A stretch of 64,000 nucleotides of DNA from Beutenbergiaceae bacterium (GCA_048594865.1 JBMDWZ010000076.1:5111-69110); one strand, 5' to 3'; shown: positions 23,093 to 60,048, numbered from the stretch's first letter. Numbers and translations: made by a program. The notes: generated by a model from the letters alone, not told the origin.

Positions 23093-24307
23093 TTACTCAC
23101 GAACCAGTGAACCGGCTTGCACGGCCCCCGTTCCGTAGCGAGCTCGGACCGTGTCCATGGCCATTTCGGCCTCGCGCCGGGCGGGCGAATCCTCCTCGAG
23201 CATCCCTTGAACCGCGGTGGTTGCGGCGGGGCTCAGCGCATCGCAGCGGACACCGAGCAACCGGACCCCATCGGCGGGAATGCTAACCCCGGCGAGCAGT
23301 TCGCGGGCACTGGTGTACAGGGCGTGCGCCACATCGGTGGCAGCGGGAAGCGTGCGGGAGCGGGTCAGGGTCGTGAAGTCCGCGTACCGGACCTTGATAC
23401 TCACGCCACCGCAGACCAACTGCGCCGCCCGCAGGCGGGCCGCGCACCGGTGCGCCTGATCCAAGAGCACGGCGTTGAGTTCGGCGGCCTCGCGCAGGTT
23501 GGTCGCAAATGTTTGCTCGTGCCCGATCGACTTTTCCTTGTGGTGCGGTTGCACCGGGCGCGGGTCGCGGCCCCAGGACAAGTCGAGCAGGCGCTGCCCG
23601 GCGGCCACCCCCAGCACCGAGTGCAACACCTGGATGGGCGTGTGGGCCAAGTCGGCGACGGTATTGATCGCCCGGGAGGCGAGCACCTGTTGGGTACGTT
23701 CCCCCACTCCCCACAGCGCACCAACCGGCAGGCTGTGCAGGAAGTCCACGGTGGAGGCTTCGGGGATCAGCAGCGTCCCATTGGGTTTGGCGTGGGTGGA
23801 GGCGACCTTGGCCACGAATTTGGTCGAGGCGATACCGACCGAGGCGTTCACCGACAGTTTCCGTGAGATCTGCGCGCGCAAGTCGTGGGCGATCTTCTTG
23901 GGCGACCCCAGCCGGCGCCTGGCACCGGAGACGTCCAGGAATGCCTCGTCGATGCTGAGTTGCTCCATCACCGGGGTGATCGAGGACAGGATGTCCATCA
24001 CCGCGGCCGACACCTCGCGATATCGACTGTGCCGTGGCTGCAAGATGATCGCCTGCGGGCACATCGCCCGGGCCCGGTGCATCGGCATCGCCGAGTGCAC
24101 CCCGCTGGCACGGGCCTCATAGGTGGCCGCGACCACCACTCCACGTTCGGCTCCGCCGACGATCACCGGTTTGCCAACCAACTCGGGATGGTCGATCAAT
24201 TCCACCGAGGCGAAGAACGCGTCCATGTCCACGTGCAGGATCGAGGTGGCCGCATCGTCCTGGCCCCAGTCCCTGCGAGCATCCGGCGATCGCACCGACC
24301 TGCTCAC
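23093..24307 (-). CDS. dinB: DNA polymerase IV (Y-family)
   Basis: 404-aa ORF with ILHVDMDAFFASVE, SIDEAFLDV and the little-finger region. Its GTG start overlaps the stop of the upstream HEPN gene (GTGA). Confidence 0.95.
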   Translation of the reverse strand: MSRSVRSPDARRDWGQDDAATSILHVDMDAFFASVELIDHPELVGKPVIVGGAERGVVVAATYEARASGVHSAMPMHRARAMCPQAIILQPRHSRYREVSAAVMDILSSITPVMEQLSIDEAFLDVSGARRRLGSPKKIAHDLRAQISRKLSVNASVGIASTKFVAKVASTHAKPNGTLLIPEASTVDFLHSLPVGALWGVGERTQQVLASRAINTVADLAHTPIQVLHSVLGVAAGQRLLDLSWGRDPRPVQPHHKEKSIGHEQTFATNLREAAELNAVLLDQAHRCAARLRAAQLVCGGVSIKVRYADFTTLTRSRTLPAATDVAHALYTSARELLAGVSIPADGVRLLGVRCDALSPAATTAVQGMLEEDSPARREAEMAMDTVRARYGTGAVQAGSLVRE

Positions 24308-24702
24308 GAGGCCATCGCCGGCTGCTGGGCTCGGGCCGCGGAGACGGCGTCGGTCACGATCCCGACGAAGTCGGTGGCCGCTTGTTCGGTGTGCACCACT
24401 TGATCCTGCCCTAGGCTCACGCCCCGGCCGGTTTCAATCGCCGCGCGGATCGCAGCTCCGGATGCAAACAGTGCGGCCCATGGCTCCCACACCTCATCGA
24501 GTTCGGAGATCTGGACCCACACACTGCGAACCGGCCCTCGCCGTCGGCCCGTCTGTGGTGATAGGGCCAGCAGCGCGGCCCCGGCCCGCAGCGCCGCCAT
24601 GTGGGCATGCAGGAAGTTGTCCTCAAGGGGCGCAGTGGCACTGAGTTGATCCAGCTCGTCGTATGCGCGGCGAAGCAACTGCTCTGGTTTGCGATCCATC
24701 AT
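24304..24702 (-). CDS. SAV_6107-family HEPN-like protein
   Basis: 132-aa all-helical ORF (…AYDELDQLSA…NFLHAHMAALRAGAALLA…WAALFASGAAIRAAIE…). It is preceded by GGAAGGAG 7 nt upstream of the ATG. I call the family from remembered sequence character and its conserved pairing with dinB. Confidence 0.65.
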   Translation of the reverse strand: MMDRKPEQLLRRAYDELDQLSATAPLEDNFLHAHMAALRAGAALLALSPQTGRRRGPVRSVWVQISELDEVWEPWAALFASGAAIRAAIETGRGVSLGQDQVVHTEQAATDFVGIVTDAVSAARAQQPAMAS

Positions 24703-24726
24703 TGGGGGGCTCCTTCCCGTTCCATC

Positions 24727-24755
24727 ATTATCGAACGTTAGTGCGACTGAGTCAA
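24727..24755 (-). promoter_or_regulatory. Sigma-A type promoter TTGACT-N17-GATAAT with a LexA (SOS) box in the spacer
   Basis: The minus strand reads TTGACT CAGTCGCACTAACGTTC GATAAT. On the plus strand, 24731-24746 is TCGAACGTTAGTGCGA, an 11/12 match to the actinobacterial SOS box TCGAAC-N4-GTTCGA. The box lies 29 nt upstream of the HEPN-dinB start. Confidence 0.7.
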
Positions 24756-24800
24756 GGGGTAGTTAGTCCTCGGCGTGCCGCGGGCGCTACATTCGTACCT

Positions 24801-25781
24801 ATGGCAGCGCGTCGGCGATCGGGGAACTCACGTTCGGCTCCCACGGCCGGGATGATCACGAATCAACGAGACCTTCCCGAACCCACTGCAACCACATTCG
24901 CCACCGTAGAGCTCACCCCTGACACCGAGGATCCGCACGGGGTACTGCTGCTCCTAGACGGGGTCCAAAGCTCCCATATCTACCTCGATGACCCCACCCG
25001 GGTGATGTTTGAGTATCTGCAGCAGATGCTCGTTGTCCTCACCGAACGCGAACCCGCCGATGCGGCCTTGAATGTGGTGCATCTGGGCGGCGCCGGTTGC
25101 GCCCTACCGCGGGCGATGGCGCATCTGTGGCCGGAGTCCCGGCATCTGGTTGCCGAGATTGACGCCAAGCTCGCCCAGTACGTGCGCCAATGGTTCGACC
25201 TGCCCCGCTCCCCTCGTTTACGGATCCGGGTCGATGACGCTCGCTCGGCATTGGCGTCGCTACGCCCTGGCGGTGGGGATGCGATTGTGCGGGACACCTT
25301 CGCCGGCGGCGCCGTGCCGCCGCACCTGCGGACAGTGGAGTTCACCACTATGGTTCGCGACCGGTTGCGCCCGGGCGGGAGCTACCTGCTGAACCTCGCC
25401 GACAACCCGCCGCTGCCGGTGGCCCGACGGGAGGCGGCCACGGTGGCACAGGTCTTTGCGCACACGGCGATCATCGCCGAACCGGGAGTGCTTCGGGGCC
25501 GCCGCTACGGCAACGTGGTGATCATCGCCAGCGACCAGCCCTGGGAGGTCGGATCGATCACTCGCGGACTTCGCCGGTTGGTTCCGCCGGCCCGGCTCAT
25601 CCACGGCGCTGACGTGCAGGACTTCATCGGCACCTCGGTACCGTTCACAGACCCCAGCGATGAGGACCAGTGGCGGGCCGGCGCCGAACCCTCGGGAGCC
25701 AGCGAGTCGAGCGAGGAGCGCCTGGCGAGCATGCTGCCCGACACCCGCGAGGATCCCGATCAGATCATTCCGATCCCGTAA
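24801..25781 (+). CDS. Spermidine synthase-like class I methyltransferase-fold protein
   Basis: The ATG at 24801 avoids overlap with the divergent gene; the longest ORF starts at 24663. The segment VVHLGGAGCALPRAM...EIDAKL...DTFAGGAVPPHL...LRPGGSYLLN resembles the actinobacterial spermidine-synthase-like family. Confidence 0.65.
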   Translation: MAARRRSGNSRSAPTAGMITNQRDLPEPTATTFATVELTPDTEDPHGVLLLLDGVQSSHIYLDDPTRVMFEYLQQMLVVLTEREPADAALNVVHLGGAGCALPRAMAHLWPESRHLVAEIDAKLAQYVRQWFDLPRSPRLRIRVDDARSALASLRPGGGDAIVRDTFAGGAVPPHLRTVEFTTMVRDRLRPGGSYLLNLADNPPLPVARREAATVAQVFAHTAIIAEPGVLRGRRYGNVVIIASDQPWEVGSITRGLRRLVPPARLIHGADVQDFIGTSVPFTDPSDEDQWRAGAEPSGASESSEERLASMLPDTREDPDQIIPIP

Positions 25782-33478: not shown

Positions 33479-33500
33479 ACTTCACCACCGACCACTGACA
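33479..33500 (-). promoter_or_regulatory. RecA-NDp/PafBC-type promoter-like motif pointing at the LysM-nrdR operon
   Basis: The minus strand reads TGTCAGTG-GTCGGTGG-TGAAGT. The upstream element is a perfect match to TGTCRGTG. The -10 is weak (TGAAGT versus TAnnnT). The first 13 nt are identical to the recA copy. Confidence 0.4.
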
Positions 33501-47762: not shown

Positions 47763-48017
47763 TCAGGAAAGAACCCGATAATGGAAGTGATAAAGGCCGC
47801 TGCCGTGCCCCGACAAGTGGCAGGCCCCCACCACTATGTGGGAGTCGCTGTTCATGATCCTGCGTTCCTGCTGGCAGTCACCGATCGAAGACGGTGCACT
47901 AGCCTGCCAACCGGCCGGAGGCGTGTCGGCTAATGCAACACCCGAACCTACGAACGCCAGCCCTACTGCTAGACCTAACGTGGCTGTAATGGACGCTAAC
48001 TTCTTTGTATTCTCCAT
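47763..48017 (-). CDS. Orphan small secreted protein (signal peptide, two Cys)
   Basis: From the ATG at 48017: MENTKKLASITATLGLAVGLAFVGSGVALA/DTPP…, a signal-peptide-like N-terminus with an ALA-D site. The mature part is about 50 aa with 2 Cys and a His-rich end. Codons are atypical for this genome (TTA, CTA, GTA, ACA) and the patch is low-GC. There is no clear RBS and I recognise no family. Confidence 0.4.
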   Translation of the reverse strand: MENTKKLASITATLGLAVGLAFVGSGVALADTPPAGWQASAPSSIGDCQQERRIMNSDSHIVVGACHLSGHGSGLYHFHYRVLS

Positions 48018-48117
48018 AGTTGCCAAACTAACACGGGCGATTTAAGCATGGCCGGTTAGCGGCCACTAATACACTCGTCGCCGCTATACCTCAAGGTGCG
48101 TCCCGACCAAAGGCTGG

Positions 48118-48687
48118 TCAGAACAGGTCGTCGCTAGGCTCGCCCTGTTCCTCTTCGCCGAGGATCTCGTTGATCAGGCGGTAACTCAGCGAGGGCGAGT
48201 AGCCCTTGCGCGCCAGCAAGCTCATCATCCGCTGGCGGCGTTTGTGTGGTTCCACGCCGGTGGTGGAGCGCGCCTTGCGACGCAGCAGTTCCCGGGCGGC
48301 GGCTTCTTCGTCGGCGGGGTCCACGGCGTCCAGCGCCGCCTGCGCATCTTCCTGCTCCACACCCTTACGGCGCAGCTCGTGAGCTAGCGCCCGGCGCGCG
48401 AGTCCGCGCTCGGACTGCCGGGTGCGCACCAGCATCGCTGCGTACTCGGCGTCGTTGATCAACCCGACCTCGGTGAGGCGGTCCAGAACCTTGTTCGCCA
48501 CCTGTTCGGGAACGTCCTTCTTGGCCATCGCCTGCGCCAGTTGGGCGCGAGACTTCGGGGAGTTAGTCAGCAGCCGCAACGCAATATTGCGGGCGAAGGA
48601 CTCGGCATCCGGTTCAGCGTCCTGGGCGGCCGCACCCGTGGCCGGGGGTTCATCCGCCCGGCCACGGGGAGCACGCGATTCGTGCAT
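48118..48687 (-). CDS. recX: RecA regulator RecX
   Basis: 189-aa helical-repeat ORF (…ARNIALRLLTNSPKSRAQLAQAMAKKDVP…INDAEYA…) lying 15 nt downstream of recA. Confidence 0.9.
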   Translation of the reverse strand: MHESRAPRGRADEPPATGAAAQDAEPDAESFARNIALRLLTNSPKSRAQLAQAMAKKDVPEQVANKVLDRLTEVGLINDAEYAAMLVRTRQSERGLARRALAHELRRKGVEQEDAQAALDAVDPADEEAAARELLRRKARSTTGVEPHKRRQRMMSLLARKGYSPSLSYRLINEILGEEEQGEPSDDLF

Positions 48688-48702: not shown

Positions 48703-49758
48703 TCAGAAGTCGACGGCGGCGACTTCTTCCTCGGGGACCGCCTCGAGCTTCACGCCGATTCCGAGCTTGGTCTTGATCTTGGATTCGATCTCTTCACCTA
48801 GCTCGGGGTTGTCCTTGAGGAACCGGCGGGCGTTCTCCTTACCCTGGCCGAGTTGGTCACCTTCGTAGGTGTACCAAGAACCCGACTTGCGCACGATTCC
48901 CTGCTCCACGCCGAGGTCAATGAGGCTGCCCTCGCGGGAGATACCCACGCCGTAGAGGATGTCGAATTCGGCCTGCTTGAACGGCGGGGCCATCTTGTTC
49001 TTCACGACCTTGACCCGGGTGCGGTTACCGACCGAGTCGGTGCCTTCCTTCAGGGTCTCAATCCGGCGCACGTCCAAGCGCACCGAGGAGTAGAACTTCA
49101 GCGCCTTACCACCAGTGGTGGTTTCGGGTGACCCGAAGAACACGCCGATCTTTTCGCGCAGCTGGTTAATGAAGATCGCAGTGGTGCCCGAGGAGGACAA
49201 CGCGCCGGTGATCTTGCGCAGCGCCTGGGACATCAGCCGGGCCTGCAGACCCACGTGGCTGTCTCCCATTTCGCCCTCGATCTCCGCCTTGGGGACCAGG
49301 GCTGCGACCGAGTCGATGACGATGATGTCCAGCGCGCCGGAGCGGATCAGCATGTCCATGATTTCCAGGGCCTGCTCACCGGTGTCCGGCTGCGACACCA
49401 GCAGTGCATCGGTGTCCACGCCGAGCTTCTTGGCGTACTCGGGGTCCAGGGCGTGCTCGGCGTCGATGAACGCGGCAATGCCGCCGGCGCGCTGAGCGTT
49501 TGCGACCGCGTGCAGGGCCACGGTGGTCTTACCGGAGGACTCGGGGCCATACACCTCGATGACGCGGCCGCGCGGCAGGCCGCCGGTACCCAACGCCACA
49601 TCGAGAGCAATGGAGCCAGTGGGGATGACCTCCACCGGCGGACGGGTGTCATCACCCAGACGCATCACCGAACCCTTGCCGTAGGCACGGTCGATCTGTC
49701 CAAGTGCGGCCTCGAGGGCCTTGGTGCGGTCTGCTACCGGAGCAGGCATAGTTTCCAC
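48703..49758 (-). CDS. recA: Recombinase RecA
   Basis: 351-aa ORF with Walker [10 protein letters not shown], then IVIDSVAAL and the L1/L2 loop regions. No intein is present. Confidence 0.98.
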
Positions 49759-49857
49759 CTTCTACGTTGTGGGCGGTTGGTCCGCCGGTTTCCTTGGGGC
49801 TGGTCTGTGCGCCGCCACCCTCTCCGGGTGCCGTGGGCGTGAATCGAAGGCTATGTC

Positions 49858-49879
49858 CGACCACTGACATCCATGATCG
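49858..49879 (-). promoter_or_regulatory. RecA-NDp (PafBC-dependent type) damage promoter motif upstream of recA
   Basis: The minus strand reads TGTCAGTG-GTCGGACA-TAGCCT, a full match to the published tTGTCRgtg-N8-TAnnnT. The -10 ends about 100 nt upstream of the recA ATG. Confidence 0.65.
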
Positions 49880-49937
49880 GCACCCTCCACGGCTGTGGAT
49901 GGAACCGTTCTTGTCCTCGATCTGTGGACAACAGTAA

Positions 49938-49953
49938 AAGAACGGGTGTTCTA
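49938..49953. promoter_or_regulatory. LexA-box-like palindrome upstream of recA
   Basis: The plus strand reads AAGAACGGGTGTTCTA and the minus strand TAGAACACCCGTTCTT, with a perfect GAAC-N4-GTTC core. TACTGT follows 2 nt downstream on the recA strand. A second candidate, TAGAACAATCGCTCGA (10/12), lies at 50025-50040 inside the last codons of the upstream permease. Confidence 0.55.
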
Positions 49954-50017: not shown

Positions 50018-50788
50018 CTACTCGTAGAACAATCGCTCGATGCGCCTGGTCGCGGCCCAGAGCCCAAAGGCCCCCAGGGCAAGGAGATACAGCACGTGCA
50101 CGGCCAAGCCCGGGCCAACCTCACCGGTAGTCAACGACCGCACCAGGGCCACCCCGTGATACAGCGGCGTGGCCTGCACCAGCCACTGCAGCACCGGTAG
50201 GTAGGTGGACAGCGGGAAGAAGGTCGCCGAGAACAAGAACAACGGCAAGATCGCCAACTGCACGTAATCGGCGTCGTTCCAGGTGCGCATGTAGGTGGTC
50301 GCCGCCATCCCGACCGCGGCAAAGGCGAAACCGATCAGGGTGCACGCCGGAATCGCCAGTACTGCCCACCAGGAGGTCACGAACCCAGCGATCGAGGCGA
50401 TGGCGAGGAATACCGTGGAGTACAGCCCGCCCCGCAGTAGCGCCCAGGTGATCTCGCCAGCGGCCACGTCACGCGCGCTCAGCGGGGTATTGAGCACCGA
50501 GTCATACAGTTTGGCGTCTTTGAGTTTGCCGAAGACGTTGACGGTGGAGTCCATCACCGCGCCGTTCATCGCCGACGTCGCCATCATCGCCGGCGCCACG
50601 AACGCCGCGTAGGACATCTGCCTGCCGTCCACGTCGATCACCCCGACCAGCGCACCTAGCCCAACGCCTAAGGCGAACAGGTAGAACAACGGCTCAAAGA
50701 AGCCCGAAACGAGCGTGAGCCACTGCTTCCCGGCGGCGGTGTAGTTGCGTTCGACCATCGCCCATGGCCGCGTCAGCGCCATGATCAT
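50018..50788 (-). CDS. ABC-2 type exporter permease (second)
   Basis: The ATG at 50788 overlaps the preceding stop by 1 nt; the longest ORF extends to 50884. Six predicted TM segments. It is DrrB/NodJ-like. Confidence 0.85.
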   Translation of the reverse strand: MIMALTRPWAMVERNYTAAGKQWLTLVSGFFEPLFYLFALGVGLGALVGVIDVDGRQMSYAAFVAPAMMATSAMNGAVMDSTVNVFGKLKDAKLYDSVLNTPLSARDVAAGEITWALLRGGLYSTVFLAIASIAGFVTSWWAVLAIPACTLIGFAFAAVGMAATTYMRTWNDADYVQLAILPLFLFSATFFPLSTYLPVLQWLVQATPLYHGVALVRSLTTGEVGPGLAVHVLYLLALGAFGLWAATRRIERLFYE

Positions 50789-51633
50789 CAGACCACCAAC
50801 CGTCTGGTCAGCTGCCGCACCGCGAGCAGGTAGCCCACGATCACGATCGCGAGCAGCACGGCCAGGTGCAGAGCGATCCGCCACGGCTCAAGCCACTGGG
50901 CGGAGTCTGGTCCAAGACCGAAGGCTCTGGTGAGGGCTACCGCGTGCGTCAGCGGCGACGCCCAAGCCAGCGCCTGCAGCCCGGCGGGTAGTTGTTCGAG
51001 GGGGAAGAAGGTCCCAGAGAACAAGAACATCGGCATCAGAATGAAGCGCTGCAACACGTTAAACCCCGCCCCCTCCCCCGAGGACGTGGCCGAGTAGGCG
51101 AAGGTGCACGTGGCGAAACCCATACCGCACAACACCGCAACCGCCACGACGGCGATGGTCCCCCATCCGCTCATCGCACCCAGGGCGGTGGCGATGAGGG
51201 TGAAAGCCACCGCCACGGTCACCACCCGGATGGCGATGTAGACCAGTTGCCCGCGCACCAGATCGACCGCCCGCAAGGGGGTGGCGAGCATCGCGTGATA
51301 CGCACCGGTCCACTTGATCGGGGCCAGCACGCTGTAGGTCGCCTCGTTGGAGCCATTGAGCATGCATTGCGCGGCCACCAGCCCGGTGGCCACAAACGCC
51401 ACATAGCTGACGCCCTCGATGGCGGTGCCCTGCGGGGAATCCAGCAGCGATCCCAGGCCGTAGCCCATGCCCACCAAGTACAACAGCGGAGCAAGGAAGG
51501 AACTGACGATCGTGGAGGGCCAGAACCGCCGGTAGCGCATCAACCAGTACGCGGTCACCGCACGCCACGGCGCTGATTGCTTGTGAACCCGCCTTGGCTC
51601 CAGGCTGGGGCCCACGTGCACCGGAGCGGTCAT
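50788..51633 (-). CDS. ABC-2 type exporter permease (first)
   Basis: 281-aa polytopic ORF with an ATGA overlap with the ATPase stop. It is a paralog-like partner of the next permease. Confidence 0.85.
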   Translation of the reverse strand: MTAPVHVGPSLEPRRVHKQSAPWRAVTAYWLMRYRRFWPSTIVSSFLAPLLYLVGMGYGLGSLLDSPQGTAIEGVSYVAFVATGLVAAQCMLNGSNEATYSVLAPIKWTGAYHAMLATPLRAVDLVRGQLVYIAIRVVTVAVAFTLIATALGAMSGWGTIAVVAVAVLCGMGFATCTFAYSATSSGEGAGFNVLQRFILMPMFLFSGTFFPLEQLPAGLQALAWASPLTHAVALTRAFGLGPDSAQWLEPWRIALHLAVLLAIVIVGYLLAVRQLTRRLVV

Positions 51634-52598
51634 TCGATGAGGCTTCGGCCGGTCAAGGTAAGGAACACGTCCTCCAGCGAGGCGCGCCGCACCAGACTCG
51701 ATTGCGGGTGCAGACCCCGGGCCGTCAACGTCTCCAGAGCACCATCGCCATCGTGCACGTACAGCAGCGTCCGGTCCGCAAGGACCTCCACGCGTTCGGT
51801 GATCTGCCGCAGTTCATCGTTCACCTCGGCGCCGTCGGCGAACCGCAACTCCAGTACCTCGCGGGTGGCGTACTGCTCGATGAGCGCCCGCGGCGACCCG
51901 TGCGCCACGATCTTGCCGCCATCCATCACCACGAGCCGATCACAGAGCTGCTCGGCCTCATCCATGTAGTGGGTGGTGAGCACCTGTGTCACGCCACGTC
52001 GTTTGAGTTCAAAGAGCCGCTGCCACAGGTTGTGCCGAGCCTGCGGGTCCAGCCCGGTGGTGGGTTCATCCAGTAACAGCAGTTGCGGGTCGTTGACCAG
52101 TGCTCGGGCGATCGTCAGGCGGCGCTTCATTCCGCCGGACAGCTTCTCCACCACCGAGTCGGCCTTGTGGTGCAGGTCCGCGAACTCAAGCAGCGGATCC
52201 ACTCGGTCGCTAGCCTCCGAGCGGCTCAGCCCGAAGTACCGGCCGTAGATGGCCAGGTTCTGCCGCACGGTCAGCTCCAGGTCCAACCAGTCCTGCTGCG
52301 GCACCACCCCGAGAGCAGAGCGAATCTTCGCGCCATCGGTGGTGGGGTCGGCACCGAGCACGCTCAACTCACCGGAGGTGGGCATCGAGGTGCACCCGAT
52401 CATCCGCATCGTTGAGGTCTTGCCCGCACCGTTGGGGCCGAGGAATCCGAAAAACTCCCCCTGCGCCACGTCCACGTCGATCCCATCGACGGCGGTGAAG
52501 TCACCAAAGGACTTGGTCAGCGACCTCGCCTGGATCGGCGGCTGCGGGCTCCCTACCGCCATGCGGGGTACCCCGGGAGGGCACGACCGTCGGGCCAT
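51630..52598 (-). CDS. ABC exporter ATP-binding protein (DrrA/NodI-like)
   Basis: Walker A GPNGAGKTST, signature LSGGMKRRLTIARAL and Walker B LLLDEPTTGLD. A C-terminal regulatory extension is typical of the DrrA/NodI subfamily. An alternative ATG lies at 52562. Either start overlaps the upstream kinase-fold gene. Confidence 0.9.
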   Translation of the reverse strand: MARRSCPPGVPRMAVGSPQPPIQARSLTKSFGDFTAVDGIDVDVAQGEFFGFLGPNGAGKTSTMRMIGCTSMPTSGELSVLGADPTTDGAKIRSALGVVPQQDWLDLELTVRQNLAIYGRYFGLSRSEASDRVDPLLEFADLHHKADSVVEKLSGGMKRRLTIARALVNDPQLLLLDEPTTGLDPQARHNLWQRLFELKRRGVTQVLTTHYMDEAEQLCDRLVVMDGGKIVAHGSPRALIEQYATREVLELRFADGAEVNDELRQITERVEVLADRTLLYVHDGDGALETLTARGLHPQSSLVRRASLEDVFLTLTGRSLIE

Positions 52599-53686
52599 TC
52601 GCGCAGTGCCCTGCGCAGCGCCTCATCGGCCGCGAGCGCCAGGTTCGGCAGGTCATCGGCCACGTGCTCAAGGACCCACCGCCACCGCTTCACCAGCAGT
52701 TGCCTGGCCGAGGGCGCGATCGCTCCGGTGGGTCCGATGCTGGGCCGGGCGGCTTGGGCCGGGGGCAGTAGCCACGCCCCGGAAGCCACAATCCACAACA
52801 CGATCGCGTGGCGTACCTGCGCCGGCCAGTTCGGGTCCTCGCCGAGGTCGGCGAACGTGCGGGCAGCGCCCTGCGTGAACGCCTGGAGCATCGCATCTGT
52901 AAGCCCGCTCGGTGGGGTGAACACGCACCAACAGCTACTGAAGGGTTCCAAGGCGTAGGCGGCGTCCACCGCGATCGGTTTCAGGCTGGTGCCTTCACAA
53001 TCCAGGAACCTCACCTGACCCTCGACAAACAGGGCGTTATCTGGGCAGGTGTCCCCCACCGACAACACGAGTCGGTCGGTTCTGCTCCACAGCCCGCTGG
53101 CCGCTTCCTCCACCTCATCCAGCGCCGCAGCAGCGGACTTTACGCCCCAATCCGCCAGCGCCTGCAGACCCTGGCCCGGCAGCGCGGCTATCTCCCGCCG
53201 GTTGCGTTCCTCGGCCTCCCCAAGCTCTCGTGACACCATCGCCACCGCACCGGCATCGGCGTCCACATGCTCACCCAACGCGCGAGCCCACTGCAGGCAT
53301 GCGTCCCACGCGGCCTGCGGGTCAGAGCCGGTGAGGAAGTCAGCGAGCGTCGGGGCGCCCCCCAGATCCTGCATGACGACGGTGGTGGCCTGTGGATCGT
53401 GCGCGAGCAGATCCGGGGTGCCGCGCAGGTAGGTCAGTCCGGCGTACTCGCGCAGATAGGCCTCGGCGGGGTTGTGCCCGGGGATGTCACTGGGCACAAA
53501 GGACTTCACCACCACGCTGCTACCCCACGACGTCGGACCCTCAAGCACGCGATGGCGGCTCACTTGGGAACGGCGCGAGCCGCCCAAGTCGATTCCGGGC
53601 GCCAAGACCGCTTGAGAAAGCGTGGGTGGGGAGATGTCTGCACCGCTCAACGCTTCTTGCCCTTCTCCGGTTGCCGGTGGTGCCAA
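52553..53686 (-). CDS. Kinase-fold phosphotransferase (APH/choline-kinase-like family)
   Basis: 377-aa ORF with an N-lobe Lys context (VVVKSF), a hinge (VVMQDLGG) and a catalytic-loop-like GDTCPDNALF followed by FLDCEG (DxG/DFG-like). The start is uncertain. Confidence 0.7.
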   Translation of the reverse strand: MAPPATGEGQEALSGADISPPTLSQAVLAPGIDLGGSRRSQVSRHRVLEGPTSWGSSVVVKSFVPSDIPGHNPAEAYLREYAGLTYLRGTPDLLAHDPQATTVVMQDLGGAPTLADFLTGSDPQAAWDACLQWARALGEHVDADAGAVAMVSRELGEAEERNRREIAALPGQGLQALADWGVKSAAAALDEVEEAASGLWSRTDRLVLSVGDTCPDNALFVEGQVRFLDCEGTSLKPIAVDAAYALEPFSSCWCVFTPPSGLTDAMLQAFTQGAARTFADLGEDPNWPAQVRHAIVLWIVASGAWLLPPAQAARPSIGPTGAIAPSARQLLVKRWRWVLEHVADDLPNLALAADEALRRALREWPDGRALPGYPAWR

Positions 53687-53874
53687 CGCACCTGCTCGGG
53701 CAACTCGTTCACTTCGCAGATCGCGGCCCAGACCTTATCTGGCCGCGCCCCATCGGCGAGCGCCTGCTCCGCCGTGCGTCCGCCCATCGGCCCCAGGGCC
53801 ATGTCCTTTGCCAATGAGGGCGCATAGGACCCGAAGGTGTCCTGCATAGCGGCCCAGAACTCGGAGTGCTTCAC
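53647..53874 (-). CDS. DUF3046 domain protein (recA-neighbourhood family)
   Basis: From the GTG at 53874: VKHSEFWAAMQDTFGSYAPSLAKDMALGPMGGRTAEQALADG…VWAAICE, which matches the DUF3046 character. The ORF-track start at 53907 is a TTG. Confidence 0.75.
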   Translation of the reverse strand: MKHSEFWAAMQDTFGSYAPSLAKDMALGPMGGRTAEQALADGARPDKVWAAICEVNELPEQVRWHHRQPEKGKKR

Positions 53875-53881
53875 ACTCTTC

Positions 53882-53903
53882 ACCCTAGTATCGAGGGGTG
53901 ACA
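53882..53903. promoter_or_regulatory. Back-to-back candidate -10 elements for divergent, apparently leaderless DUF3046 and ybaK-like genes
   Basis: Minus strand: TGTCACCC-N8-TAGGGT, with the GTG at 53874 lying 7 nt after the -10. Plus strand: TAGTAT (53886-53891), with the GTG at 53898 lying 6 nt after it. The two -10 hexamers overlap by 2 nt (accCTAGtat). Confidence 0.4.
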
Positions 53904-54440
53904 GCAAACGAACTCACCTGGTTACCCACCGCCGATCATCCCGAACTGCTGGCCGACCCGGTGCGCGCCCAGTTAGCGGGCTCCGAGCTGGGCACTCACG
54001 CTCAGGTGGCGCAGATCGACCCAGAAATCGCCGATACCGCCGCCCTGGTCCAAGCCACCGATGTAACCCTGGAATCCAGCGCCAACTGTCTCATTGTGCG
54101 TGCTCGCCGGGGCGGTGAGGAGACGTTTGCAGCGGCGTTGGTGTTGGCCACCACCAAGGCCGACATCAACTCCACCATCCGCAAGACCCTTGGCGCCCGC
54201 AAATGCTCCTTCATGTCCATGGACGACGCCGTGGAACTCACCGCCATGGAGTACGGCGGGATCACCCCGATTGGGCTGCCGGACGGGTGGCCGGTGCTCA
54301 TCGATTCGCGGGTGGTTGCCACCGAACAAATCGTGATCGGCTCGGGCCTGCGAACCTCCAAGGTGCGGATCGACGGAGCCTGCGCCGCGCAGCTGCCCGG
54401 AGCACAGGTGATTGAAGGGCTGGCGATCGAGATCGAATGA
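53898..54440 (+). CDS. YbaK/EbsC-like aminoacyl-tRNA deacylase domain protein
   Basis: 180-aa ORF with …ANCLIV…AAALVLATTKADINSTIRKTLGARKCSFMSMDDAVELTAMEYGGITPIGLP…IVIGSG, typical of the YbaK/ProX trans-editing fold. Confidence 0.78.
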   Translation: MTANELTWLPTADHPELLADPVRAQLAGSELGTHAQVAQIDPEIADTAALVQATDVTLESSANCLIVRARRGGEETFAAALVLATTKADINSTIRKTLGARKCSFMSMDDAVELTAMEYGGITPIGLPDGWPVLIDSRVVATEQIVIGSGLRTSKVRIDGACAAQLPGAQVIEGLAIEIE

Positions 54441-54482: not shown

Positions 54483-57400
54483 GTGACCGAGCCAGACCTG
54501 CCCTTCTCGCCGCCGACGCGGTCCTGGTTCGCTGACGCCTTCGATGCGCCGACCGCGGCCCAGCGTGAGGCCTGGGACGCGATCGGCTCCGGTGACCATG
54601 CCCTGGTGGTGGCCCCGACCGGTTCGGGTAAGACTCTGGCGGCATTCCTCGCCGCCCTGGACGCACTTCTCACCGGCGAAGCCAGCGAGCCCGCTGCACC
54701 CAAAGAGCGCTGCCGGGTGCTGTACATCTCCCCGCTCAAGGCCCTCGCCGCCGACGTTGAGCGCAACCTGCGCTCCCCGCTGGTGGGCATCACCCAGGCC
54801 GCGCAGAGTGCCGGTGAGCACGTTCGTGACGTTCAGGTGGGTACGCGCACCGGCGACACCCCCGCCGCCCAGCGCCGCGCCTTTGGCACCAAACCACCAG
54901 ACATCCTCATCACGACCCCCGAGTCCCTGTTCCTCATCCTTACCTCCTCCGCCCGCGAGGGGCTGGCTGGGGTGCAGCAAGTCATCATCGATGAGGTGCA
55001 CGCACTGGCCGGCAATAAACGCGGTGCCCACTTGGCGTTGTCCTTGGAGCGCCTGGACCAGATGCTTCCCGCCCCGGCGCAGCGGATCGGACTGTCGGCA
55101 ACGGTCAACCCGCCACAGGTGGTCGCGGACTACCTCAGCGGAGCGCGCCCGCTTGCCGATGGTGGACGCAAGGTGCGCATTGTCCAACCGCACATCGATA
55201 AGCAACTGCAAATCGACGTCGTCGTCCCGGTTCCTGACCTGTCTGATATTCCGAGCACGCAGGCCGATTCGGCCGATGACGCCGGTCTGGACCTGAGCGG
55301 TTCGGCGGCCGGCACCCCACCGGAACTGCGGCAAAACCAGGGCGCGTCAATCTGGCCCCACGTCACGCAGCGAGTCACCGACCTCATCGCCGGGCACCGT
55401 TCCACGATCGTGTTCACCAACTCCCGACGCGGCGCCGAACGGCTCACCTCACGGATCAACGAGGAGAACGCGCGCCGCCTCGGCCTGATGGACCCAGACC
55501 CGGCAGCGGAGGTCGCTGCGCAGGTGCCCGGGCAGTCGGGAACCAGCGCGCAGGTGCCTGCCGAAGCGATCATCGCCCGGGCGCATCACGGGTCGATGAG
55601 TCGCAGCGAACGCACCGACATCGAGTCGGCCCTGAAGTCCGGTGCCTTGCCGGCGGTGGTCGCCACCAGTTCCTTGGAGCTCGGGATCGACATGGGCGCC
55701 GTGGACCTGGTGATCCAGGTGGGCTCACCGCCGTCGGTGGCCTCGGCATTGCAGCGCATCGGACGCGCCGGGCACCAAGTTGGCGAGGTGTCCACCGGGG
55801 TGGTCCTGCCTACACACCGGGGCGACCTGCTCGCGGCGACCTCTGGCTCTGCCCGGGCTAGGGAGGGGAGGATCGAGTCGATCAAGATTCCGGCCAACCC
55901 CCTCGATGTCCTGGCTCAACAAGTGGTGGCGACGCTTGCCATCGAGGATTACGACGTTGATGACTTGGCGGCGATGGTGCGTCGCAGCGCACCGTTCGCG
56001 TCGTTGCCCGACGGGCTGTGGCGCTCGGTGTTGGACATGCTCTCCGGCCGCTACCCCAGCGAAGACTTCGCCGAGTTGCGCCCACGGGTGGTGTGGGACA
56101 GAGCGTCGGGCACCCTGCGCGCGCGGCCCGGGGCGCTGCGGCTGGCAGCAACGTCGGGCGGGACCATCCCCGACCGCGGACTATTCGGGGTATTCCTGGT
56201 CGGCGAAAGCGACCCGGCGCGCGGCGGAAAACGCGTGGGTGAACTCGATGAGGAGATGGTGTTTGAGTCCCGGGTCGGGGACACCTTCACGCTGGGCTCC
56301 TCGACCTGGCGGATCCAAGACATCACGCCCGATCGGGTGCTGGTCACCCCCGAGCCGGGGATGCCCGGCCGGTTGCCGTTCTGGAAGGGCGACGCCCCCG
56401 CGCGGCCCGCGGAACTCGGCCAGGCGCACGGGGAAATGATCCGCACGCTGATCGGCGATGATCTGTCCGAGGACTCCTCGGCGCTGGATGGGTTGGATGA
56501 GTGGGCCGCGCAGAACGTCCTTGCCTACCTGCGGGAGCAGCGTGAGGCGACCGGCGAGCTCCCGAGTGATCAGACCGTGGTGGTGGAGCACTTCCGCGAC
56601 GAGCTCGGCGACTGGCGGATCGCGATCCACTCGCCGTTCGGGGCCGCGGTGCACGCGCCGTGGGCGCTGGTGCTGCGGGCCAGATTGGAGGAACGTTTCG
56701 GCTTGGACGCTCAGACGATGCACGCCGATGACGGGATTGTGCTGCGGCTGCCGGACACCGCCTGGGACGAACCGGAGTCCACCAGTCAACTCGACCTGGC
56801 GGATCTGCTCATCGACCCCGATGAGGTCAAGGCCCAGGTGGTGGCGGCGCTGGGGGCCTCGGCGCATTTTGCTGGCCGGTTCCGGGAAGCTGCGGCCCGG
56901 TCGTTGCTGCTCCCCCGCCGGCGTCCCGATGGCCGACAGCCGCTGTGGCAGCAGCGTCAGCGCAGCGCCCAGTTACTGTCGGTCGCCTCCCGGTATGACG
57001 ACTTCCCGGTGGTGCTGGAGGCCGTGCGCGAATGCCTGCAGGACGACTTCGACATCGACGCCCTCACCGGCATCATGACCAGGCTAGACAACCGCGATAT
57101 CCGGCTCGTTGAGGTGCGCACGCCCCACCCCTCACCATTCGCCAGTTCGCTGATCTTCGGCTACGTCGCCCAGTTCCTGTACGACGGCGATGCTCCCCTT
57201 GCCGAGCGTCGTGCGGCGGCGCTCAATCTCGATGGCAAACTGCTGGCCGAGTTGCTGGGTGATGGCGCCGAGATCGCCGATCTCCTCGATCCGGCGGCAC
57301 TGGCCACCGTCGAGGCTCAAGTGGGTCTGCGCACCCGCGGCGTCACCGATGCCGAGGGGATCATCGACCTGATCCGCCGATTGGGCCCGGTGCCGACGAA

Positions 57401-59270
57401 GGAACTCGCGGCACGGTGCACCGACGACGTGGATCCCGAGGTGCTGCAGGTGTGGCTGACAGGCCTGCAGTCCGATCGCCGGATCCTGACCGTGCGGGTC
57501 GCCGGGGCGGATCAATGGATCACGGTGGAGGACGCCGGCCGGATGCGCGATGCGTTGGGGGTTGCGCTTCCCATGGGGTTGCCGCAGGAGTTCACCGAGC
57601 CGGTACCAGCGGCGCTCAGCGACCTGGTGCAGCGGCACGCGCGCACGCACGGGCCGTTCCGGGCCGGGCAGGTTGCCGCGAGATTCGGATTGGGGGTGGC
57701 GGCGCTGACCCCGGTGCTGGCCGAACTCGCCCGATCCGGGACGCTAGTGAGCGGTGCGCTGCGGCCAGCCGAGTCACACAGTCCCGAGAGCGCGGGCATG
57801 CCCGGGCCCGACTATTGCGACGCGGAGGTGTTGCGCCGGGTTCGCCGTGGCTCGTTGGCGGCGCTGCGCTCGGAGGTAGAGCCGGTGCCGCACGCGGCCC
57901 TTGGTCTCTTTGCCCCGCGGTGGCACCAGTTCGGCCGGCTGCGCGGATTGGACGGGGTGCGCAGCGCCTTGGAGCAGCTCGTGGGCACCACCATGCCGCT
58001 CAGCTCTTGGGAGTCCCTGGTGCTACCGGCGCGGGTGGCCGACTTTCGGGCAAGCATGCTCGATGAGCTCACCGGCTCCGGTGAAGTGGTGTGGGTGGGC
58101 CAGGATCAGAACGTGGCGCTGCTGCCAGCAGATGCGGTGGCTGACCTCGCCCCAGCGGTAAGGGAGAACCTTGAGGCGAACGGGGCCACGGCCGCGATCC
58201 TGGGGGCGCTGTCTGGAGGGGGCGGGTTGTTCTTCCGGGACCTGCTGACCGCCGTGCGGGAGTCCGAGGGCCTGTCGCAGATCGCGGCGGTTGACGTCAT
58301 CGACGCGATCTGGGAACTGGTGGACGCCGGCCAGGTCACCAATGACTCACTCGCCGCCCTGCGGGCCCGCGAGGCGCCGGCCGGCCGTGGCGCTCGCTCG
58401 GGTTCTGGCGCGGGTTCAGGCGCAGGTTCGGGCGCAGGTTCAGCCAGGGCGCGGGGTTCGCGGGCGGCGGGCACACGCGCCGCGGCGAGTGCGGGGGCTG
58501 CGCCGCGCACCCGGTCACTGCGGGCCACCGCACTGCGGACCGCCGGGGCGCAGGTGTCCACACCGCCGTCGGCCGCGGGGCGGTGGGCGCTGGTGCAGGA
58601 GCGCTCCAGCGCCGAGCAGCGAACCGTGGCCGCGGTGCTGTCGATGGCGGATCGTGATGGCGTGCTCACCCGTGGCGGGGTGCGGGACGTGCCCGGTGGT
58701 TTCGCGACCGCCTACCGCATTCTGGCCAGCGCGGAGGAGAACGGGCAGGTTCGCCGGGGCTACTTCGTAGAGGGACTGGGAGCCGCACAGTTCGCCCTAC
58801 CCGACGCTGTGGAGGAGTTGCGCTCGGAGTCGCGCGCGCTGGAGCGTGAGGAGGCACCCGCGGTGTTCCTCGCGGCAACCGATCCCGCCAACCCCTATGG
58901 CGCGGCGTTGCCCTGGCCACCGGGCTCCGGTGAAGCCAGCACGCACCGGCCCGGGCGTAAGCACGGCGCGGTAGTGGTGCTGGTTCGGGGAGAGCTGATC
59001 TTGTACCTGGAACGTGGCGGAAAGTCGCTGCTGTCTTTCGAGGCGGACTCTGCGGCGTCGGGAGCGGGCGGCGCGCCATCCGGTGGCTCGGCCTCCCTAC
59101 GCGCCGCATGCGAGCTCCTGGCGACCAAGCTCGGGACCGGCATCATGGGCCGAGTGACGCTCACCAAACTCAACGGGGCACAAGCGCTTGGCGACAAGAG
59201 CGCACTTGGCCAAGCGCTGAGCGACGCGGGGTTCCTCAGCACGCCCCGAGGGCTGCGGTTACGTGCCTGA
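54483..59270 (+). CDS. lhr: Large helicase-related protein Lhr (SF2 DNA/RNA helicase)
   Basis: 1595-aa ORF with motif I APTGSGKT, motif II IIDEVHAL, then HHGSMS…, the Lhr-core winged-helix region and a long C-terminal extension. It is followed by nei, as in mycobacteria. Confidence 0.95.
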   Translation: MTEPDLPFSPPTRSWFADAFDAPTAAQREAWDAIGSGDHALVVAPTGSGKTLAAFLAALDALLTGEASEPAAPKERCRVLYISPLKALAADVERNLRSPLVGITQAAQSAGEHVRDVQVGTRTGDTPAAQRRAFGTKPPDILITTPESLFLILTSSAREGLAGVQQVIIDEVHALAGNKRGAHLALSLERLDQMLPAPAQRIGLSATVNPPQVVADYLSGARPLADGGRKVRIVQPHIDKQLQIDVVVPVPDLSDIPSTQADSADDAGLDLSGSAAGTPPELRQNQGASIWPHVTQRVTDLIAGHRSTIVFTNSRRGAERLTSRINEENARRLGLMDPDPAAEVAAQVPGQSGTSAQVPAEAIIARAHHGSMSRSERTDIESALKSGALPAVVATSSLELGIDMGAVDLVIQVGSPPSVASALQRIGRAGHQVGEVSTGVVLPTHRGDLLAATSGSARAREGRIESIKIPANPLDVLAQQVVATLAIEDYDVDDLAAMVRRSAPFASLPDGLWRSVLDMLSGRYPSEDFAELRPRVVWDRASGTLRARPGALRLAATSGGTIPDRGLFGVFLVGESDPARGGKRVGELDEEMVFESRVGDTFTLGSSTWRIQDITPDRVLVTPEPGMPGRLPFWKGDAPARPAELGQAHGEMIRTLIGDDLSEDSSALDGLDEWAAQNVLAYLREQREATGELPSDQTVVVEHFRDELGDWRIAIHSPFGAAVHAPWALVLRARLEERFGLDAQTMHADDGIVLRLPDTAWDEPESTSQLDLADLLIDPDEVKAQVVAALGASAHFAGRFREAAARSLLLPRRRPDGRQPLWQQRQRSAQLLSVASRYDDFPVVLEAVRECLQDDFDIDALTGIMTRLDNRDIRLVEVRTPHPSPFASSLIFGYVAQFLYDGDAPLAERRAAALNLDGKLLAELLGDGAEIADLLDPAALATVEAQVGLRTRGVTDAEGIIDLIRRLGPVPTKELAARCTDDVDPEVLQVWLTGLQSDRRILTVRVAGADQWITVEDAGRMRDALGVALPMGLPQEFTEPVPAALSDLVQRHARTHGPFRAGQVAARFGLGVAALTPVLAELARSGTLVSGALRPAESHSPESAGMPGPDYCDAEVLRRVRRGSLAALRSEVEPVPHAALGLFAPRWHQFGRLRGLDGVRSALEQLVGTTMPLSSWESLVLPARVADFRASMLDELTGSGEVVWVGQDQNVALLPADAVADLAPAVRENLEANGATAAILGALSGGGGLFFRDLLTAVRESEGLSQIAAVDVIDAIWELVDAGQVTNDSLAALRAREAPAGRGARSGSGAGSGAGSGAGSARARGSRAAGTRAAASAGAAPRTRSLRATALRTAGAQVSTPPSAAGRWALVQERSSAEQRTVAAVLSMADRDGVLTRGGVRDVPGGFATAYRILASAEENGQVRRGYFVEGLGAAQFALPDAVEELRSESRALEREEAPAVFLAATDPANPYGAALPWPPGSGEASTHRPGRKHGAVVVLVRGELILYLERGGKSLLSFEADSAASGAGGAPSGGSASLRAACELLATKLGTGIMGRVTLTKLNGAQALGDKSALGQALSDAGFLSTPRGLRLRA
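58401..58442. repeat. 12-bp tandem repeat (ggttcNggcgcN), about 3.5 units, inside lhr
   Basis: Units read directly: ggttctggcgcg ggttcaggcgca ggttcgggcgca ggttca. They encode GSGAGSGAGSGAGS within a Gly/Ser/Ala/Arg-rich linker. Confidence 0.9.
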
Positions 59271-60048
59271 GGGTGACATCGCCAAGCGGGTATCGCGGCG
59301 CTTGACCCAGGCCCTGGACACCGGGGTCCTGATCCGCACCGACCTGCGATGGGCGGACCTCGGCGGCTCAGACCTGCGCGGGCAACGGGCCCTGGAGACC
59401 GTCAGCTACGGCAAGCACATTCTGACCCGCACCGACGCGGGCTGGACCCTGCATAGCCATCTTCGGATGGACGGGATGTGGCAGATCCGGCGCACCACCA
59501 GCCCGGCGCAGCGGCTTGCGCGCCCGAGCATCCGGGCGGTGCTCGCCACCGAGTCCTGGACCTGCTTTGGCGACCGGCTCGGCGAACTGGACCTGGTCCG
59601 CACACGGGATGAACGCCGTCTGATCGGCCACCTTGGCCCGGACCTTCTCACTGAGGACCCCGACATCGCCCTCGCCGCAGCGAACGCCGCGAAGCGGGCG
59701 ACCGAGACGATCGGCTCGGTGTTGCTGGATCAGCAGGTGGCCGCCGGTATCGGCACGATCTACATGGCCGAGAGTCTGTGGCACCACCGGATCAACCCGT
59801 GGCGGCCCACCGGCCAGGTCGACGACCTGGCCGAGCTATTCACCACCGCATCGACCTTGATGCACCGCAGCGCAGACGCCCGGCTGCCGACGGCGACCGG
59901 ACAGTTCGAGCGTGGCCGCACCACCTACGTCCATGGCCGAGGGCAACTTCCGTGTAGACGCTGCGGCGCGCTCATCGTAGAAAAGGAAGTAGGCCGGGCG
60001 CCTATGCAGCGCCCGGCCTTCTTCTGCCCGGTATGTCAGCCTTCCTGA
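59263..60048 (+). CDS. nei: Fpg/Nei-family DNA glycosylase (endonuclease VIII-like)
   Basis: 261-aa ORF with the N-terminal MPEGD catalytic start, the H2TH region (…LLDQQVAAGIGTIYMAESLW…) and a C-terminal zinc finger CRRCG…CPVCQ. It overlaps the lhr stop by 8 nt. Confidence 0.9.
   Translation: MPEGDIAKRVSRRLTQALDTGVLIRTDLRWADLGGSDLRGQRALETVSYGKHILTRTDAGWTLHSHLRMDGMWQIRRTTSPAQRLARPSIRAVLATESWTCFGDRLGELDLVRTRDERRLIGHLGPDLLTEDPDIALAAANAAKRATETIGSVLLDQQVAAGIGTIYMAESLWHHRINPWRPTGQVDDLAELFTTASTLMHRSADARLPTATGQFERGRTTYVHGRGQLPCRRCGALIVEKEVGRAPMQRPAFFCPVCQPS
59992..60018. terminator. Perfect 10-bp stem hairpin inside the nei 3' end; candidate shared terminator for convergent nei and clgR
   Basis: The sequence is ggccgggcgc-ctatgca-gcgcccggcc. 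It is followed by TTCTTCTG on the plus strand and by TACTTCCTTTTCTAC on the minus strand. It lies 30 nt before the nei stop and 48 nt beyond the clgR stop. Confidence 0.4.

Follow-up and report, generated by a model that had tools for sequence, protein, structure and literature searches.

Why should a kinase-like gene and an exporter stand between a DUF3046 gene and recA? The question is raised by a 64-kb stretch of DNA from a Beutenbergiaceae bacterium (GCA_048594865.1 JBMDWZ010000076.1:5111-69110), referred to here as the window. Its minus strand carries five overlapping genes in an array: DUF3046, a gene for a kinase-like protein, and the genes of an exporter with one ABC ATPase and two ABC-2 permeases. 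recA follows ~260 nt further on. The initial annotation, made from the sequence alone, had proposed that ~3.6 kb of kinase and exporter genes were placed inside the recA unit. Comparison with other genomes gave a different picture: the exporter appears to be ancestral at this site, and only the 1.1-kb kinase gene appears to have been inserted. Taken singly, each part is of a known kind: DUF3046, the ABC-2 exporter, a kinase of the APH fold, and the PafBC and SOS promoters. What is new is the conserved damage-type promoter of the exporter family, which is of wider interest, and the combination of genes in the lineage of the window.

A scan of reference genomes confirmed at least 592 loci of the exporter trio; the best 80 were kept and mapped with the window proteins. 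ATPase, permease 1 and permease 2 stood together in all 80, including loci of Acidimicrobiia and Chloroflexota, with the ATPase 60–76% identical. Permease 2 alone had more than 6800 homologues, the best being 65–78% identical across orders (top matches in Pseudactinotalea, Occultella, Jiangella, Phytoactinopolyspora, Cellulomonas, Actinotalea and Kineosporiaceae). DUF3046, recA or Lhr lay within 10 kb of the trio in 25 of the 80 loci. Of the 71 loci that could be tested, 13 had DUF3046 upstream of the ATPase at a distance under 500 nt. In 18 loci recA lay downstream of the trio, and five of these resembled the window in having it no more than 700 nt away.

The order Lhr←|DUF3046→trio→recA→recX was common to several orders, and Lhr was upstream of the trio in many loci. 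Micrococcales and Jiangellales had DUF3046→trio→recA; in Nocardioidaceae, DUF3046 stood between the trio and recA (trio→DUF3046→recA). The order of the window minus the kinase was seen in Actinotalea, Janibacter, Oryzihumus, Tetrasphaera, Ornithinibacter, Lapillicoccus and Phytoactinopolyspora. The neighbour order on the lhr side of the window was also present in Pseudactinotalea sp. Z1748 (L091) and in L092. In Kribbella, the trio stood among MFS, SDR and APH genes. Judged by these positions, the exporter is an ancient, strongly conserved core transporter that is probably ancestral at the recA site and was not inserted there.

The exporter also appears to have a promoter of its own. PafBC acts through the RecA-NDp element (PMC6789036), for which the consensus is tTGTCRgtg-8 nt-TannnT (PMC5656591). 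We searched with a strict core pattern (TGTCR-N11-TANNNT) and with a weight matrix trained on recA-upstream sites only, using the 99th percentile of the controls as threshold. Of 77 loci, 21 had the strict motif directly in front of the ATPase, compared with ~0.3 expected (background of 0.0044 per 270 nt). With the matrix, 31 of 78 loci were above the threshold (~0.8 expected by chance), and the controls were nearly empty: 0 of 82 upstream of permease 2, 1 of 82 upstream of permease 1 and 0 of 16 upstream of recX. All 31 sites had an in-frame start 6–9 nt after the -10 hexamer (6 nt in 4 loci, 7 nt in 19, 8 nt in 7 and 9 nt in 1).

The matrix-positive loci included Kribbella, Umezawaea, Geodermatophilaceae and Mycobacteriales metagenome-assembled genomes (MAGs), in which the trio is far from recA. 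Six Kribbella loci (L029, L032, L039, L045, L046, L070) had a strong PafBC-type promoter at the trio. The motif was found in 0 of 10 loci labelled Chloroflexota, which keep only the -10 hexamer, and in 1 of 14 labelled Acidimicrobiia (labels from record titles). An SOS core was upstream of the ATPase in 1 of 77 loci.

Taken together, the exporter family looks like a conserved member of the PafBC (LexA-independent damage) regulon in the class Actinomycetes. In many Actinomycetes, the ATPase would be read as a leaderless mRNA from its own predicted RecA-NDp promoter, whether near recA or not. The likeness to the PafBC/RecA-NDp regulon lies in the canonical consensus match at these 31 of 78 genomes; unlike this, the element heading the array of the window is only partial. 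The link between exporter and damage response that the initial annotation had suspected is hence supported more strongly than that annotation could know. The literature searched, which excludes the main Cell Rep 2018 regulon paper, held no mention of an ABC-2 exporter as a conserved PafBC regulon member.

The distribution of the kinase differed from that of the exporter. While the exporter intervened between DUF3046 and recA in several orders, the kinase was found in 0 of the 80 reference trio loci. It lay between DUF3046 and the ATPase in five places only: the window, Pseudactinotalea sp. Z1748 and three short metagenomic contigs (L007–L009). A metagenome scan gave no further DUF3046-linked kinase loci beyond these five. 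The gene order of L091 was that of the window (nei←lhr←ybaK←|DUF3046→kinase→trio→recA→recX), with recA 93% and the kinase 59% identical. In a neighbour-joining tree, the DUF3046-linked kinases formed one clade. The simplest history would be a single insertion of the kinase between DUF3046 and the ATPase, kept through ~40% sequence divergence.

The relatives at this junction differ in compactness. In L091, 55–59 nt separate the genes, and in L009 a gene on the opposite strand lies between kinase and ATPase; complete fusion by overlaps is thus particular to the window genome. The gene in L009 (1866–2549, minus strand) belongs to the DNA_alkylation repair family (PF08713, E=3e-22); a damage-related gene was thus inserted here a second time, independently of the kinase.

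In the sister clade (Ornithinimicrobium and relatives), the kinase follows NMO genes and genes for HD-domain dGTPase-like proteins, with LigD-PrimPol and dnaG close by; more distant homologues were in unrelated contexts. Kinase and exporter as a mobile pair was a candidate that we dropped, as the homologues in Ornithinimicrobium, Occultella, Streptomyces and metagenomes sit in other contexts and lack this exporter.

Some further observations concern these neighbourhoods. In four loci of the sister clade (L001, L006, L010, L093) the kinase overlaps the end of the NMO or the HD-domain (dGTPase-like) gene, and in L006 the HD domain is within a 1011-aa MFS/cNMP-binding/HD fusion. The kinase there is close to an extracytoplasmic function (ECF) sigma factor, LigD-PrimPol and dnaG, another DNA-metabolism neighbourhood. 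In the one Kribbella locus examined (L046), the trio was followed by a convergent gene for a 446-aa APH-family protein (PF01636). It was considered as a relative of the window kinase and rejected, since the two sequences are unrelated outside the catalytic loop; that a gene for a kinase-fold protein again stands next to the trio may be a coincidence.

The label "kinase-fold" had been a guess, and the 377-aa protein had no match in Pfam or NCBIfam at E≤0.01, including the APH model PF01636. Precomputed Pfam domains were also lacking in all 110 kinase homologues. A family profile built from 42 homologues, however, matched the corramycin phosphotransferase ComG of Corallococcus coralloides (8agy/8ahd) over its full length (8agy, E=1.9e-32; ComG residues 22–354), the only solved protein matched in this way. 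The AlphaFold2 (AF2) model of the kinase had a predicted local distance difference test (pLDDT) value of 93.8 and a predicted template modelling score (pTM) of 0.91. Its top Foldseek match was again ComG (8agy, template modelling (TM) score 0.73/0.77), followed by PsiK, methylthioribose kinase and choline kinase at ~0.5. All 75 matches in the PDB at E≤0.001 were kinases of the bilobal APH/kinase fold. Profile and structure verified the guess.

Invariant residues in the 42 homologues were K49 (the beta3 Lys), E68 (the alphaC Glu), D200-x4-N205 (GDTCPDN) and D217-x-E219 (LDCE). The model is that of an active-looking kinase fold with an intact catalytic set. A Gly replaces the usual His before the catalytic Asp, and the family has an unusual invariant PFSSCWC segment and an unusual invariant Cys within the catalytic loop. 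The near-invariant or invariant cysteines of the family (C202 in GDTCPDN, C240 and C242 in PFSSCWC) are absent from ComG; a metal site or a redox switch would be possible roles for them. The family is large, with 2324 representative clusters at E≤0.001 and 790 at the stricter E≤1e-30. Most members come from Streptomyces, Kitasatospora, Streptosporangium and Micrococcales.

Corramycin is inactivated by ComG through phosphorylation (PMC10996006). It poisons DNA gyrase, and in M. tuberculosis it triggers both the SOS and the PafBC response (PMC13455829). The window kinase shares with it the bilobal fold, D-x4-N, D-x-E, the beta3 Lys and the alphaC Glu, and an extra C-terminal helical region also aligns. 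In contrast to the window kinase, ComG matches Pfam APH according to its authors, and it is a self-resistance gene in a myxobacterial biosynthetic cluster; the window kinase is in a DNA-repair neighbourhood and a non-producer context. Since ComG is only ~22% identical and lacks PFSSCWC, we regard the kinase as probably belonging to a distinct ComG-like subfamily and not as an orthologue of ComG.

The initial annotation had called the exporter one of DrrAB/NodIJ type, and the domain matches, which are those of an ABC-2 exporter, agree with this. The ATPase (51630..52562, minus strand; 310 aa) matched PF00005 at E=4e-32, and both permeases matched PF01061 (ABC2_membrane) at E ~4e-15 (3.6e-15 for permease 1). 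The scores for the named families remained under the cut-offs: for the ATPase, 325.8 bits for NodI (cut-off 521) and 276 bits for DrrA (cut-off 312.45), and for permeases 1 and 2, 112 and 115 for NodJ (cut-off 206.65) and 81 and 49.5 for DrrB (cut-off 223). No curated threshold of APH, NodI/J or DrrA/B was reached by any of the kinase and exporter proteins. The permeases are paralogous (~33–38% identical, cross-matching); one ATPase with two paralogous permeases implies a pump of two nucleotide-binding domains (NBDs) and two different transmembrane domains (TMDs), (NBD)2-TMD1-TMD2.

NodIJ and DrrAB (TIGR01288/TIGR01291, TIGR01188/TIGR01247) are the best-scoring named families. They have in common with the trio an ABC-2 membrane domain and a separate ATPase subunit, and homologues of the window trio carry the NodI_C domain. 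Unlike them, the window has two permease genes instead of one and no nodulation or daunorubicin context, and its trio is a core gene set across Actinomycetota and Chloroflexota. Closer in composition is Rv2686c-Rv2687c-Rv2688c of M. tuberculosis, which is also actinobacterial and consists of one ATPase and two ABC-2 permeases. On overexpression it is reported to give efflux of fluoroquinolones, which are gyrase poisons, while deletion of the M. smegmatis homologue had no fluoroquinolone phenotype (PMC8829022). It does not adjoin recA in M. tuberculosis. Orthology with the window trio was considered and compared at the peptide level, where five published Rv2686c/Rv2687c peptides had no convincing match to the window permeases at corresponding positions.

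The five minus-strand open reading frames (ORFs) were all present as the initial annotation had described them, and each junction was seen in the raw sequence. The overlaps from DUF3046 to permease 2 are 4, 10, 4 and 1 nt. The DUF3046 gene (53647..53874) has its stop TGA (53649-53647) inside the kinase ORF, of which the longest form starts at TTG 53686 (377 aa). The shorter start at TTG 53650 (365 aa; gene 52553..53650) is more likely: it forms a TTGA overlap with the DUF3046 stop, it has a ribosome-binding site (GGAGAAGGG) 9 nt upstream, and 365 aa agrees with the lengths of homologues. The kinase frame in turn ends within the ATPase ORF (stop TAG, 52555-52553). Of the two ATPase starts named before (52598 and 52562), ATG 52562, overlapped by 10 nt, is favoured because it agrees with the N-termini of homologues. 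ATPase and permease 1 (50788..51633, 281 aa) share the ATGA at 51633-51630, and the junction of permease 1 with permease 2 (50018..50788, 256 aa) is a TGATG with a single shared nucleotide at 50788. The public annotation of the kinase (P0001, 331 aa) begins at ~53548 and loses a conserved N-terminal strand region (LGGSxRS) found in all homologues; the true start is probably TTG 53650.

recA (48703..49749, minus strand) was identified by PF00154 (E=1.6e-141) and by TIGR02012 (571 bits, above cut-off). Of its two possible starts, ATG 49749 is more likely than GTG 49758. Its distance to the last permease, given before as 260 nt, is 260–269 nt depending on the start. In this intergenic region we found two control elements that had been overlooked. 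The distal promoter has an SOS (LexA) box core (GAACACCCGTTC, 49951-49940), and the proximal one is a perfect RecA-NDp/PafBC consensus match (TGTCAGTG-N8-TAGCCT, 49848..49869, minus strand) with a matrix score of 17.4 when the window's own lineage was left out of the training. This is the two-promoter arrangement of mycobacterial recA. Upstream of recA, the RecA-NDp motif was conserved in 19 of 19 loci and the SOS core at the equivalent position in 18 of 19. In L091, the RecA-NDp site is identical to that of the window and the SOS core is TCGAACACGCGTTCG. With both elements conserved, recA is self-sufficient and does not depend on the array.

No intrinsic terminator beyond chance was found between permease 2 and recA, so that transcription could run on into recA but need not do so. 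The final codons of the last permease do contain the 10/12 LexA-like site reported before (50025-50040); as a control element it was rejected, because five such sites occur in the window compared with 2.4 expected, which is chance level. A 13-nt inverted repeat (49905-49945, 85% complementary, 15-nt loop) overlaps the right half of the recA SOS box; shortly after it comes a GTCC...GGAC palindrome, which L091 has as well. These repeats could be a second operator or a leader structure. In three loci (L013, L017, L018) the recA matches fell into two blocks ~1 kb apart, which suggests intein-containing genes.

The array itself is headed by a partial RecA-NDp/PafBC-type element, TGTCACCC-N8-TAGGGT (53882..53903, minus strand), as the initial annotation had noted. 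Since only 7 nt separate its -10 hexamer from GTG 53874, the most probable form of DUF3046 is a leaderless gene of 75 aa and not the 86-aa ORF from 53907; homologues are 74–76 aa long. The kinase overlaps the start of the ATPase, which leaves no room for a promoter of the ATPase's own. No -10 hexamer was found at the window ATPase start, and the only candidate promoter is the one at DUF3046. A -10 hexamer 6–7 nt before the DUF3046 start was conserved in ~20 loci, and matrix scores in front of DUF3046 were strong in sister lineages (Occultella 11.2, Actinotalea caeni 7.3). That DUF3046 is generally PafBC-driven was considered and dropped: the strict motif is only in the window and Occultella, and what is widely conserved is just the -10 hexamer and the leaderless start. 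No SOS box (GAAC-N4-GTTC) was found upstream of DUF3046.

In the whole window, the strict motif had three copies, compared with 0.70 expected, all on the minus strand and all upstream of damage genes: at 24924-24903 (HEPN-DinB operon), 49869-49848 (recA) and 53903-53882 (DUF3046).

DUF3046 (PF11248, E=4e-19, 69.2 bits, gathering cut-off 25) is confined to Actinobacteria, and the M. leprae protein is predicted to bind the GyrA C-gate; depletion of Rv2738c is reported to give levofloxacin resistance (preprint, bioRxiv 10.64898/2026.07.15.738315). A DUF3046 protein rose after UV in Nesterenkonia (PMC8965627). As with Rv2738c and recA, the small DUF3046 gene of the window is upstream of recA on the same strand. 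The difference is that 2.7–3.9 kb of exporter genes (plus the kinase in the window) intervene, as in many Micrococcales and Jiangellales. The gyrase theme, formed by the GyrA prediction for DUF3046 and by the ComG substrate being a gyrase poison, is suggestive but circumstantial.

As a whole, the locus is best explained as a conserved actinobacterial DNA-repair neighbourhood with an ancient exporter (nei←lhr←(ybaK)←|→DUF3046→ABC-2 exporter→recA→recX), into which a ComG-like APH-fold kinase gene would have been inserted once, in one lineage, between DUF3046 and the ATPase, giving a damage-linked array; we hold this explanation with moderate confidence. After DNA damage, one leaderless mRNA would run from 53874 through permease 2. 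DUF3046 would modulate gyrase, the kinase would phosphorylate and so neutralise a small-molecule or peptide toxin, and the exporter would remove that toxin, its product or another damage-associated substrate. The array may plausibly help to protect the cell from a gyrase poison or a genotoxin. The most specific version is a damage-triggered defence against gyrase-poisoning natural products, with PafBC, activated by DNA breaks, switching on a gyrase-binding DUF3046 modulator, a toxin-phosphorylating kinase and the exporter, and with the trio as a phylum-wide effector of the LexA-independent damage response; this we consider rather unlikely. Several points weigh against a damage-linked array. 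The element at DUF3046 scores only 0.3 on the recA-trained matrix, between the 95th and 99th percentiles of the controls, which is due to CCC at positions 6–8 where the consensus has GTG (TGTCACCC compared with TGTCRGTG). Within the kinase-bearing clade it is absent in L091, the closest named relative, and in L007, and it scores 1.0 in L009. L091 has instead separate -10 hexamers for the kinase and the ATPase, each 6–7 nt before the start codon. Given the low score and these absences, damage induction of the window array is weakly supported, although plausible. No damage motif was found upstream of kinase homologue genes in other contexts, where the exporter is also absent, and the substrate of the kinase is not inferable from ComG at ~22% identity and with no PFSSCWC in the latter. 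Finally, the best PDB matches of the ATPase are the NBDs of ABCA7, ABCA4 and ABCA1, which transport lipids, and the trio lies between ndk and mreB/PBP2 in Umezawaea and in MAGs labelled Mycobacteriales; both fit an envelope role.

The weak or absent element and the envelope links lead to the main rival for this genome, a housekeeping envelope exporter with a passenger kinase, which is reasonably likely. Stated in full, it holds that the trio exports envelope lipid or glycolipid, that its place beside recA is frozen synteny, that an unrelated kinase settled in a permissive spot and that the array is not damage-induced here. The trio of Chloroflexota, conserved with only a -10 hexamer, agrees with this, as does the size of the kinase family with its mostly unrelated contexts. 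On the other hand, the PafBC-type motif at 31 of 78 loci is specific to the ATPase gene and has a uniform leaderless architecture, the kinase was retained at the junction through ~40% divergence, and a DNA-alkylation repair gene was independently inserted at the same place. A housekeeping role and damage induction are also compatible, and we consider the full form possible yet unlikely. Insertion of kinase and exporter as one ~3.6-kb cassette, forming a genotoxin module co-transcribed with recA, has in its favour the overlaps of the five genes, the possible read-through after permease 2 and the relation of the kinase to an antibiotic-inactivating kinase. The comparative data nevertheless appear to refute it largely: the exporter is ancestral in several orders and stands without the kinase in all 80 reference loci, kinase homologues elsewhere never adjoin it, recA has its own conserved SOS and RecA-NDp promoters, and the opposite-strand gene of L009 splits the kinase from the exporter. 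We regard the cassette as very improbable. A regulatory kinase, which would tune the damage response by phosphorylating an endogenous metabolite or a protein partner such as DUF3046, gyrase or the transporter, would fit the protein-kinase-like fold with its intact catalytic apparatus, the translational coupling to DUF3046 upstream and the ATPase downstream, and the coupling, in the sister clade, to NMO and HD-domain dGTPase-like genes with LigD-PrimPol and dnaG nearby. We consider it highly unlikely, as the close structural relatives (ComG, PsiK, methylthioribose (MTR) kinase, choline kinase) are all small-molecule kinases.

The remaining features of the window are neighbours of the array or other damage motifs. 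Downstream of recA, recX (48118..48687, minus strand) has the Pfam domains RecX_HTH1/2/3, and between recX and a glutamate-type ABC permease gene there is a minus-strand ORF of 87 aa (47763-48026) with a signal-peptide-like N-terminus and no Pfam match. On the plus strand, the divergent neighbours assigned by Pfam are a ybaK-like tRNA_edit gene (53898-54440), Lhr helicase (54483-59270) and an Fpg/Nei glycosylase (59263-60048). The starts of the ybaK-like gene (GTG 53898) and of DUF3046 (GTG 53874) are 23 nt apart (gap in relatives ~25–90 nt), which puts the DUF3046 promoter within the beginning of the ybaK coding sequence or directly against it. No PafBC-type site for ybaK-lhr-nei was found on the plus strand. 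The minus-strand operon at 23093-24924 consists of genes for a 132-aa SAV_6107-like HEPN protein (24304-24702) and for a polymerase of the DinB/Pol IV type (23093-24307). With a strong RecA-NDp site (24924-24903, matrix 12.7) and two SOS-like boxes (24731-24746, 24824-24835) in front of it, it appears to be a dual-controlled damage operon that joins the HEPN protein with a translesion polymerase. A further minus-strand site at 33479-33500 (TGTCAGTGGTCGGTGGTGAAGT) reaches 9.7 with the matrix trained on recA sites; it has TGTCAGTGGTCGG in common with the recA site but lacks a TAnnnT -10.

Damage responses are usually framed as repair, recombination, mutagenesis and cell-cycle genes. An exporter with a PafBC-type promoter spanning many actinobacterial families suggests that Actinobacteria routinely respond to DNA damage by export as well, a side of the response that has been overlooked; a genotoxin, a damaged metabolite or an envelope component are possible cargoes. 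The exporter is a defined and easily testable target in culturable Kribbella, Nocardioides and Janibacter. The ComG-like kinase family is large (790 clusters at E≤1e-30) and uncharacterised, and neither Pfam nor NCBIfam has a model for it. Together with DUF3046 as a predicted GyrA binder and an exporter resembling a fluoroquinolone pump in architecture, the kinase points to possible environmental resistance determinants against gyrase poisons, and these would include the corramycin-class compounds now in development.

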